A stretch of 64,000 nucleotides of DNA, taken from an uncultured Clostridia bacterium. GTDB lineage: Bacteria; Bacillota; Clostridia; Christensenellales; UBA1242. How positions within the stretch are numbered: position 1 is the first letter of the stretch; each line of letters opens with the position of its first letter. The stretch is taken from assembly GCA_947629745.1 (NCBI GenBank), contig CANREZ010000002.1, positions 67,140-131,139 of the forward strand, in the 5' to 3' direction. The notes beneath the pieces were generated by a model. It did no database searches, had not been told where the DNA came from, and saw only the letters and a program-made list of their open reading frames with translations. Of the stretch, positions 19,141-46,499 are shown piece by piece. The position numbers and the translations under genes were made by a program.

Positions 19141-19216
19141 TGGTAGCCCCAAGGAGAATCGAACTCCTGATTCCGCCTTGAGAGGGCGACGTCTTAAACC
19201 GCTTGACCATGGGGCC
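19141..19216 (-). tRNA. tRNA-Glu(CTC)
   Basis: Cloverleaf ggccccatgg...tcgcc-ctCTCaa-ggcgg...gttcgatt...ggggctacca; terminator at 19108-19136. Confidence 0.95.
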
Positions 19217-21382: not shown

Positions 21383-21458
21383 TGGTAGTCCCTAGGAGAA
21401 TCGAACTCCTGATTCCACCGTGAAAGGGTGACGTCTTAAACCGCTTGACCAAGGGACC
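21383..21458 (-). tRNA. tRNA-Glu(TTC)
   Basis: ggtcccttgg...tcacc-ctTTCac-ggtgg...gttcgatt...gggactacca; terminator at 21354-21379. Confidence 0.95.
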
Positions 21459-28557: not shown

Positions 28558-28710
28558 ATGACAGAAAATTTGATGTTAACTATATTGCAGACTAGGAATA
28601 ATTATGCTATTGCGCAAAGATTGGATGATAGGACACTTGACTCTGTTAGGAGACTCTATCAAGGCTTCCTGCAATCAAAAAATGATATCAATAAAAGAAA
28701 ATCCCACTAA
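28558..28710 (+). CDS. Possible 50-aa small ORF
   Basis: ATG..TAA open frame (MTENLMLTILQ...RKSH) ending in the terminator stem; weak RBS; not in the ORF track. Confidence 0.25.
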   Translation: MTENLMLTILQTRNNYAIAQRLDDRTLDSVRRLYQGFLQSKNDINKRKSH

Positions 28711-28734
28711 GGAAATATCCTAGTGGGATTTTTT
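28697..28734. terminator. Bidirectional terminator
   Basis: aaaatcccacta-...-tagtgggattttt. Confidence 0.75.
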
Positions 28735-28833
28735 GTTCGCGCAGGGGTGTGCTTGCACACCGAAGGCCGGAGCGAGTACGTTCGAATCGATTGCGAGAGC
28801 AATCACAGGGGGACCTGTCCGCCATTAGCGCCA
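28735..28833. repeat. Structured inverted echo of the tRNA-Thr 3' end with inserted hairpins
   Basis: gttcgaatc[gattgc-gaga-gcaatc][acagg-ggga-cctgt]ccgccattagcgcca vs tRNA gttcgaatcccgccattagctcca. Confidence 0.85.
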
Positions 28834-28839
28834 CAAAAA

Positions 28840-45807: not shown

Positions 45808-45901
45808 ATATAACTACAAGATAGAATGTGACATATCTCAAAATTATTAGTAAAAATGTGAGATATAAATTCCATGCAGGAAAACACATTTAATAAATAA
45901 A

Positions 45902-45979
45902 CAAAAAAAAAGAAGCAAGCAATTGCTTCTTTTTTTTGTTTGTATTAAAAGCATCTAGTAGCCCTAGATGCTTTTAATA
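45902..45979. terminator. Two adjacent terminator hairpins
   Basis: aaaagaagcaa-gcaa-ttgcttctttt and attaaaagcatctag-tagcc-ctagatgcttttaat. Confidence 0.7.
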
Positions 45980-46078
45980 TTTATGAGGATAAATTATCCC
46001 ATATATAGATAGATGTAATTAATAAAATTATCTCATGCTCACATATTAAATATTTTCGTCCAGAGGCCGTGTTAAGAA

Positions 46079-46216
46079 AGAGCGTGGTTCTCGGGATGTT
46101 TGTGTGATAACACAAATCCGGGGACCCGAGCGTCCCAAACCGTCTCGAAGAGACTGGTTGGGGGTTCGCTGCAAGATATTGCAGGGTGTGCGGATAGCAC
46201 ACAGACTCCCTCTGGG
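46079..46216. repeat. Structured inverted echo of tRNA-Arg with five inserted hairpins
   Basis: ggttgggggttcg (46156-46168) and actccctctgg (46205-46215) equal the tRNA T-arm/acceptor, split by [ctgcaa-gata-ttgcag]g[gtgtgc-ggata-gcacac]ag. Confidence 0.85.
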
Positions 46217-46242
46217 ATAAGTGAAGTTTTTTGATAAAAAAA

Positions 46243-46319
46243 TGGTGCGTCCAGAGGGAGTCGAACCCCCAACCTTTGGTTCCGTAGACCAACGCTCTAT
46301 CCAATTGAGCTATGAACGC
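46243..46319 (-). tRNA. tRNA-Arg(ACG)
   Basis: gcgttcatagctc...ttggt-ctACGga-accaa...gttcgact...tggacgcacca. Confidence 0.95.
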
Positions 46320-46499
46320 ACGCAAATATTTATTAACTATTAGACTATATACCAACATGACCTAATTGTCAAGTAAATATTTTTCATAACGCAAAAATTA
46401 TTCAGCAATTGTGCTAGCCCTAACTAAATTTCGCGTCAAAACTATTGACTAGGGAAATTGTTTTGCTTAAAATTAAAGAAAGGTAAAAGGGTGAGCATA

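Follow-up and report, generated by a model that had tools for sequence, protein, structure and literature searches.

What is the GC-rich, gene-free stretch that stands directly 3′ of a tRNA-Arg(ACG) gene in this window (by which we mean the whole 64,000-nt stretch of DNA that was analysed, taken from a genome of 973 kb, 40% GC and 95% completeness), and how did parts of that same tRNA come to be written into it in inverted orientation? A preliminary description of the locus had listed two exact inverted matches to the tRNA, of 13 and 11 nt, on either side of a 36-nt insert with two hairpins, together with a set of recurring loops and a direct 10-mer farther from the gene; on re-reading, the coordinates and all of these features proved correct. 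The element, which we call an echo element, occupies 46057-46217 (∼160 nt) and starts 27 nt past the tRNA. Within it, GGTTGGGGGTTCG at 46156-46168 is an inverted copy of 13 nt, identical to tRNA-Arg positions 46-58, and GACTCCCTCTGG at 46204-46215 is an inverted copy identical to positions 58-69, a match of 12 nt with the shared G counted and of 11 nt without it. The 35-36 nt between the two (46169-46203/4) fold as two 6-bp hairpins, and the direct 10-mer, cgtccagagg at 46057-46066, is identical to 46248-46257 of the tRNA. The inverted arms are exact (25/25) and the direct arms are decayed; the element is single-copy at its locus, with no tandem unit. Listed in the direction in which the tRNA is read, the features are as follows.

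46344-46372, minus strand: promoter-like site of tRNA-Arg (TTGACA, 17 nt, TATAGT; 11/12 matches)
46243-46319, minus strand: tRNA-Arg(ACG) with encoded CCA (Rfam tRNA, 67 bits)
46216-46242, minus strand: AT-rich 27-nt spacer from tRNA to element, without a hairpin terminator
46204-46215, minus strand: 12 nt, exact and inverted, copied from the end of the T-loop through the T-stem 3′ strand into the acceptor 3′ strand (its first 3 nt); supplies one side of the closing stem
46169-46203, no strand assigned: two-hairpin insert that splits the inverted copy in the T-loop, with 6-bp stems and plus-strand loops GAUA and GGAUA (folding)
46156-46168, minus strand: exact inverted copy, 13 nt, of the variable region, the T-stem 5′ strand and the T-loop start
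46142-46154, no strand assigned: hairpin (5 bp, GAA triloop) where the inverted T-stem 5′ copy gives way to the direct one (sequence and folding)
46127-46141, minus strand: variable region and T-stem 5′ strand copied in direct orientation, degenerate; pairs with 46156-46168, two of the plus-strand pairs being G-U (folding; read from the sequence)
46086-46126, no strand assigned: long stem-loop whose 5′ side resembles the anticodon arm, as an inverted copy with an inserted hairpin (folding, alignment)
46079-46085, minus strand: exact 7-nt inverted match (AGAGCGT) to the D-stem 3′ strand and junction
46057-46066, minus strand: 10 nt, exact, repeating the T-stem 3′ and acceptor strand in direct orientation without the CCA end; lies at +176 from the tRNA and supplies the second side of the closing stem
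45904-45937, no strand assigned: bidirectional terminator; on the minus strand, the first terminator-like site 3′ of tRNA-Arg

The Arg echo element is not a chance similarity. A 13-mer match was reached in 1 of 500 dinucleotide shuffles of the Arg trailer, with the second collinear 12-mer not yet counted. The weaker similarity that had been claimed to reach back to the D and anticodon arms is genuine, with a gapped local alignment of tRNA-Arg to the reverse complement of its trailer scoring 66.7, whereas 100 shuffles averaged 37.1 and reached 51.4 at most. That the element is cognate to its tRNA was also upheld, since cognate inverted exact matches of at least 10 nt within 300 nt downstream were found for 7 of 42 tRNAs, versus 32 of 1722 non-cognate tRNA/trailer pairs, and the non-cognate matches came mostly from the shared T-loop or from neighbouring tRNAs. 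Finally, contigs from public DNA runs span 46036-46245 and 46081-46249 with 0 differences at a depth of ∼3; the runs are possibly those of the source sample, and the independent support that they give to the assembly is weak.

In folding predictions, the plus strand of 46050-46235 reached −76.2 kcal/mol (z −5.06), and the minus strand of tRNA-Arg together with its trailer reached −115 kcal/mol (z −8.05). Both the MFE and the centroid structure of the element close on CCAGAGG/CCTCTGG, and its predicted loops are GAUA, GAUA and GGAUA, plus a cGAAg triloop. It had been proposed that the inverted copies make a four-way junction by pairing with the tRNA. Such pairing is possible, with a predicted −113.9 kcal/mol for the trailer paired with the whole of tRNA-Arg versus −84.1 kcal/mol for a retained cloverleaf with a separate element, but the tRNA is not needed: the element brings partners of its own, the direct copies, with which the inverted ones form a self-contained junction with four arms inside the closing stem.

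The same arrangement recurs in this genome. An echo scan of the 28 tRNAs that have at least 60 nt of free trailer found cognate inverted and/or direct copies at 8 of them (Ser-cga, Thr-cgt, Thr-ggt, Arg-acg, Asn-gtt, Tyr-gta, Gln-ctg and Ser-tga), with direct 3′-end copies located 157-200 nt past the tRNA gene, and a ninth echo-bearing tRNA, tRNA-Ile, is broken over two contig ends. Four loci (Arg-acg, Thr-ggt, Tyr-gta and Gln-ctg) have 30-40 nt inserted between the inverted T-stem 3′ strand and the inverted T-loop. The four inserts are unrelated in sequence and three of them contain two clear hairpins; the insert point follows TTCG in Arg and the T-loop in Thr, Tyr and Gln. The topology is conserved across different tRNAs, as had been suggested from the Arg and Thr elements. 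The latter also lies in the window.

28740-28839, minus strand: sister element of tRNA-Thr(GGU) (sequence comparison, folding)

This Thr element comprises an inverted copy of the T-stem 3′ strand, acceptor and CCA (14/15), a 30-nt two-hairpin insert and an inverted T-loop, and is followed by a terminator at 28698-28732. Behind Tyr-gta there are two tandem 187-nt units, each with its own terminator copy, and the second unit runs on into a 26-nt inverted anticodon arm. Modules are also shared between the elements of different tRNAs: partial copies of tRNA-Asn and tRNA-Ile carry, after TTCG in the T-loop, a 92-nt insert that is 88% identical between them and differs by two compensated stem changes, and a motif of 28-34 nt (93-97% identical) is common to the trailers of Thr-cgt, Ser-cga and Ser-gga. 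No sequence relative of the Arg element body was detected in its own genome, and the trailers of the two tRNA-Glu genes of the window (19141-19216 and 21383-21458, on the same strand as Arg and Thr) are without cognate copies.

A search of 40 related genomes for the Arg element body matched only the tRNA part of the query, and protein-anchored and two-arm pattern scans of metagenome contigs found no relative of the Arg element. At the tRNA-Arg(acg) loci of relatives, 18 of which were fetched, cognate copies of at least 9 nt were found at 7 (relatives G013, G007, G018, G010 and G031, and more weakly G004 and G022) and were absent from 11, one of these negative loci being limited to a 78-nt trailer. 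The direct repeat of G013, G007 and G010 spans 21 nt (T-loop to CCA), and that of G013 and G007 extends through the terminator, beyond the tRNA. The preliminary description had asked that echoes be checked for tracking tRNA substitutions between species, and they do so at all four Arg(acg) loci that have an inverted arm, own genome included, where the arm agrees with the tRNA variant of its own genome. The Arg bodies of G013 and G018 have a 33-nt stretch in common (alignment score 49, with 0 of 200 shuffles as high) while their arms follow different tRNA variants, a combination that, read from sequence, would mean either that arm and tRNA evolve in concert or that the body was re-inserted. A hairpin motif is common to the Arg elements of G013 and G018, which belong to two genera, and to the Leu-tag element of G001. 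Apparent copies of the G007 Arg element in five genomes were rejected, being matches to the AT-rich terminator only.

Occupancy differs sharply between close relatives. G001, the only other species of the genus, has cognate copies at Lys-ctt, Leu-tag, Leu-caa and Asn-gtt and a weak one at Arg-cct, with tandem units at Asn-gtt and Leu-caa. It has none behind Arg-acg, Thr-cgt, Tyr-gta, Ser-tga, Gln-ctg or Ser-cga, all of which bear them in our genome, and Asn is the only tRNA at which the two species have echoes in common. Between tRNA-Gln(ctg) and the start of efp, where synteny is kept, the interval is 21 nt in G001 versus ∼290 nt in our genome, in which it contains a terminator and the echo, so that an empty and a filled site can be compared. 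The only syntenic Arg-fhs locus, that of G014, is without an echo. Together, the difference in occupancy, the filled and empty site and the shared modules point to insertion-like DNA dynamics rather than to a fixed function at particular tRNAs.

The reading that we prefer, and whose chance of being right we put at about half, is that the echo elements are gene-free pieces of DNA that insert or duplicate specifically at the ends of tRNA genes. Their architecture, cognate specificity and recurrence, the differing occupancy in a congener, the filled versus empty site, the tandem units and the shared modules are established; we read these elements as selfish or near-neutral DNA and not as a conserved part of tRNA biology. 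Small DNA elements would settle specifically behind, or in the T-loop of, tRNA genes, with the tRNA-matching arms either taken from the target gene at insertion or kept alike by gene conversion; the tRNA gene would be left intact, and the elements, moving as DNA, would be gained and lost quickly. Because no sequence relative of the Arg element was detected in its own genome, in the 40 related genomes or in the metagenome scans, its own mobility is argued from that of its sister elements. The contrast between its exact inverted arms and its decayed direct arms points to constraint or gene conversion acting on the inverted arm, which would suit an RNA or pairing function as well, and the compensated hairpin changes would be expected under any structural constraint, including one on RNA. 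A DNA-level role had been suggested earlier from the cGAAg triloop; it is compatible with the gain and loss and with the tandem copies, and it remains a hint.

The preliminary description had also inferred an undescribed class of elements. The class is real and cognate, but the RtT (tyrT 178-bp) repeats of E. coli have the same layout. Applied to the tyrV trailer of E. coli K-12, the same echo scan found three tandem 178-bp units. In each, 10 nt of the T-stem 3′ strand recur exactly and inverted at +59, and the T-stem 5′ strand with the start of the loop recurs in direct orientation at +81; a hairpin-rich insert of ∼67 nt occupies the T-loop, and the last 19 nt of the tRNA, CCA included, are repeated directly at +159. 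A fourth copy lies between tyrT and tyrV, and the E. coli control returned four copies at 133-138 bits. The Rfam consensus structure of RtT closes on the inverted/direct stem, as does the predicted fold of the Arg element, and the annotated RtT small RNA extends from 7 nt past tyrV to the CCA of the direct copy. Copy number ranges from 1 to 10 per genome, with a median of 3, among the 4738 E. coli genomes with a match (5426 were searched); 18 of the matching places in this search are on plasmids.

Like RtT (RF00391; its gene is rttR, which contains tpr), the Arg element stands directly behind a tRNA gene of the same strand, has a similar unit size, carries a direct copy of the tRNA 3′ end (10 nt at +176, without CCA), and is closed by a stem of inverted and direct T-stem 3′ copies with hairpins inside. 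Tandem units are absent at Arg and present at Tyr-gta of the same genome. Unlike RtT, the Arg element is cognate to Arg and not to Tyr, is single-copy and has a direct copy that lacks CCA, and its inverted copy is much longer (exact in the T-arm, weak in the D and anticodon arms) and is split by two hairpins. It was rejected as a member of the Rfam RtT family, for which a score of at least 45 bits to the covariance model is required: RF00391 gave no match in the window at the gathering score and none at E up to 10 in either 45850-46450 or the own genome as a whole, and the elements of relatives did not match it. A search of all of Rfam over the window returned tRNA only, and around the element at E up to 10 also nothing else. 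Homology between the bodies of RtT and of the Clostridia elements was likewise rejected, as alignment scores fell within those of shuffles and only the comparison of G013 with G018 was significant. The repeats reportedly go back to Egan and Landy in 1978, Rossi et al. in 1981 and Boesl and Kersten in 1991, and to our knowledge RtT has been an orphan of one E. coli operon on whose function there is no agreement. A mobilome preprint reports that coverage of the rttR region rose in DNA treated with exonuclease, and it describes the RNA's mode of action as unknown. Full-text literature searches turned up no account of a tRNA gene followed by inverted copies of its tRNA that carry hairpin inserts.

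The likeness to RtT raises the possibility that the element acts as RNA. A terminator scan of the locus found no terminator-like site between tRNA-Arg and the element, and a promoter scan found no plus-strand promoter before either the Arg or the Thr-ggt element; at Thr-ggt the terminator is directly 3′ of the element, with none between tRNA and element. From the lack of an intervening terminator, the elements at these two loci would be part of the tRNA transcript, as 3′ trailers. The Arg element is probably transcribed with tRNA-Arg in this way and would then be cut away. At most other echo loci, the terminator precedes the element and is repeated along with the direct copy, which fits DNA duplication better than a cis-acting trailer.

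One explanation for this placement is a functional RtT-like RNA, made in the tRNA-Arg transcript and freed by tRNA-processing enzymes, that would imitate a tRNA, act as a decoy, or regulate tRNA maturation or the starvation response. Not only do promoter and terminator put the Arg and Thr-ggt elements within the tRNA transcription unit, but their E. coli counterpart in layout also carries a small-RNA annotation, and the mobilome preprint calls rtT RNA stress-responsive and links it to tyrT processing. The exact inverted arms beside decayed direct arms, the compensated stem changes and the predicted pairing of the trailer with the whole tRNA would suit such an RNA too. However, occupancy is almost wholly different between two species of one genus, the body has no sequence conservation, the terminator stands before the element at most loci, and the Arg direct copy is without the CCA end that gives RtT its tRNA-like 3′ end. 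Moreover, the better-folding strand is antisense to the tRNA, and the scan found no promoter for that strand. We regard an RNA function as a candidate that is nevertheless unlikely.

The difference between the strands deserves some caution. At Arg, the plus strand, antisense to the tRNA, folds better (−76.1 versus −59.8 kcal/mol, with 6 versus 0 G-U pairs), and the antisense strand has the advantage in all 8 elements of the own genome, in 1 of 4 in G001 and in 0 of 3 in three other genera. The difference is small under DNA parameters, and local G-richness may be its cause. We rejected the idea of inferring a strand of action from folding, the preference being absent from other genomes, and draw nothing from it. 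Echo-bearing tRNAs lie on the C-rich strand in 8 of 9 cases (the 8 scanned and the contig-end tRNA-Ile) versus 22 of 33 other tRNAs, with no clear difference. As a separate observation on local GC skew, 30 of the 42 tRNA genes of the genome are on the C-rich strand, among them an Ile-Ala pair of the kind usual in rRNA operons. Under the common skew rule these genes would be head-on to replication, and either this genome departs from the rule or its tRNA genes have an unusual orientation.

A second alternative is an integrase scar, left when a phage or island that had been integrated by a tyrosine integrase was later deleted and pieces of attL and attR remained. Partial tRNA genes are a well-documented product of integration (PMC9897764, in which Reiter 1989 and Williams 2002 are cited). 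Like attL/attR partial tRNA copies and CIMEs, the echo elements combine a direct repeat of the tRNA 3′ part, starting from the T-loop, with an intact tRNA gene and no internal recombinase; the repeat is 10 nt at Arg and at least 21 nt in G013, G007 and G010, where its T-loop-to-CCA extent is the classic one. PMC9897764 explains partial tRNA genes by integration and CRISPR activity only and uses neither the word 'inverted' nor the word 'hairpin'. However, integration makes no inverted copies, and the echo elements differ from att sites and CIMEs in having inverted cognate copies, a hairpin-only body of uniform size (∼130-200 nt) and whole units repeated in tandem, terminator included. Rather than decayed phage DNA, the bodies consist of perfect hairpins, GC-rich in a genome of 40% GC, and the G013 and G007 repeat passes through the terminator and beyond the tRNA. 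In the own genome, all direct tRNA-end copies of at least 15 nt are close to the tRNA that they match, except that the Ile copy is at a contig end, and thus no interval of island size is bounded by such repeats.

A matching integrase is also lacking from the own genome, in which, at 95% completeness, domain searches gave no match to RVT_1, the IS110 DEDD domain (PF01548), TnpB, Y1_Tnp or serine recombinases and resolvases. The one tyrosine recombinase (C10:4684-5820) is Xer-like, its best matches being XerS/XerC/XerD, with XerS foremost and all below the curated cut-offs; its sequence suggests a single-recombinase dimer-resolution system. We consider an integrase scar quite improbable as the origin of the Arg element.

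Third, replication template switching at short hairpins such as the T-arm and the terminator could have produced a direct-inverted-direct triplication that later decayed and gained hairpins, with no mobile element involved; events of this kind in other organisms are reportedly the subject of published papers (PMC11790251, PMC10766186). The order direct (the tRNA itself), inverted, direct is indeed that of an inverted triplication, the small hairpin at 46142-46154 marks the point where the inverted T-stem 5′ copy turns into the direct one, and perfect short palindromes could come from snap-back synthesis. Against this, body modules are common to elements of different tRNAs and genera, the bodies are not copies of local sequence, and architecture and size are too regular, which leaves template switching a doubtful account with little chance of being right. 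A chance similarity or an assembly artefact, although the read depth is low and the runs with the locus may be the source sample, has a negligible probability given the shuffle and non-cognate controls, the two collinear exact matches, the recurrence at eight loci and the run contigs without differences.

Within our preferred reading of DNA elements specific to tRNA gene ends, we compared the Arg element with other small mobile sequences. REP/REPIN sequences and the hairpin repeats of DUF559 cassettes are similarly small, GC-rich, gene-free, dispersed hairpins with compensated stems, but REP-type repeats neither copy an adjacent gene nor keep to tRNA ends, and the Arg element has no sequence in common with these repeats. 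The own genome has one DUF559 cassette (C7:770-1650), with a gene for a 119-aa Vsr-like nuclease between GC-rich terminal inverted repeats of ∼60 nt. It is not beside a tRNA, and a terminal-repeat-like copy in the tRNA-Ser(gga) trailer (∼C1:48440-48500) is all that connects it to tRNA trailers; a link to the Arg element was rejected. Nothing found in the own genome ties either the Xer-like recombinase or the DUF559 nuclease to the Arg element. We also rejected a non-autonomous element of the IS200/IS605 type (PATE), there being no Y1_Tnp or TnpB domain and the insert points differing among tRNAs, and an IS110-type bridge or seek RNA, there being no PF01548 match in the genome.

Folded single-strand recombination sites include those of integrons (attC) and the attP hairpin of CTX phage, which is used by Xer. 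Like them, the Arg element is an imperfect inverted repeat, and its folded stem would reproduce the target duplex (T-stem 3′/acceptor); the sole recombinase of its genome is Xer-like as well. On the other side, the T-arm of the tRNA is not dif-like and strand preference is inconsistent across genomes, and we use the comparison as a working analogy only. A broader reading would place RtT, the Arg element and the other echo elements in one pan-prokaryotic class of tiny mobile elements that write antisense and sense copies of tRNA ends by way of a folded strand, whose stem equals the T-arm/acceptor duplex and which would be recombined by a host enzyme such as one of the Xer type. We put this forward tentatively and think it unlikely. 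If it were true, it would imply a target-templated insertion mechanism not yet described.

The inverted and direct layout of RtT stands behind many tRNAs of an unrelated, genome-reduced lineage of gut Clostridia, and with it the RtT curiosity becomes a class open to comparative genomics and to E. coli genetics. If the elements move, they would have a mode of recognizing or copying tRNA genes that is outside the textbooks; if they act as RNA, they would represent a widespread tRNA-linked RNA. On the practical side, the partial tRNA copies that belong to echo elements confuse tRNA annotation and break assemblies, and the tRNA-Ile locus is an example. There, C16:13380-13780 and C15:1-130 contain a partial tRNA-Ile copy that runs from the anticodon loop to CCA and is interrupted in the T-loop, after TTCG, by an insert of ∼90 nt; behind the copy stand the terminator and inverted echo that the intact tRNA-Ile at the beginning of C15 also has, and hairpin modules are repeated on both sides. 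This repeat probably broke the assembly at the contig ends. Another repeat family is found in the trailers of tRNA-Leu(gag), tRNA-Met and tRNA-Asn (C1:152100-152345, C1:159625-159900 and C7:42040-42160); it is a long hairpin in which G/C runs close an A/T-rich stem core, and a CT-rich stretch precedes it. Trailers of tRNAs thus seem to collect several kinds of small repeats.
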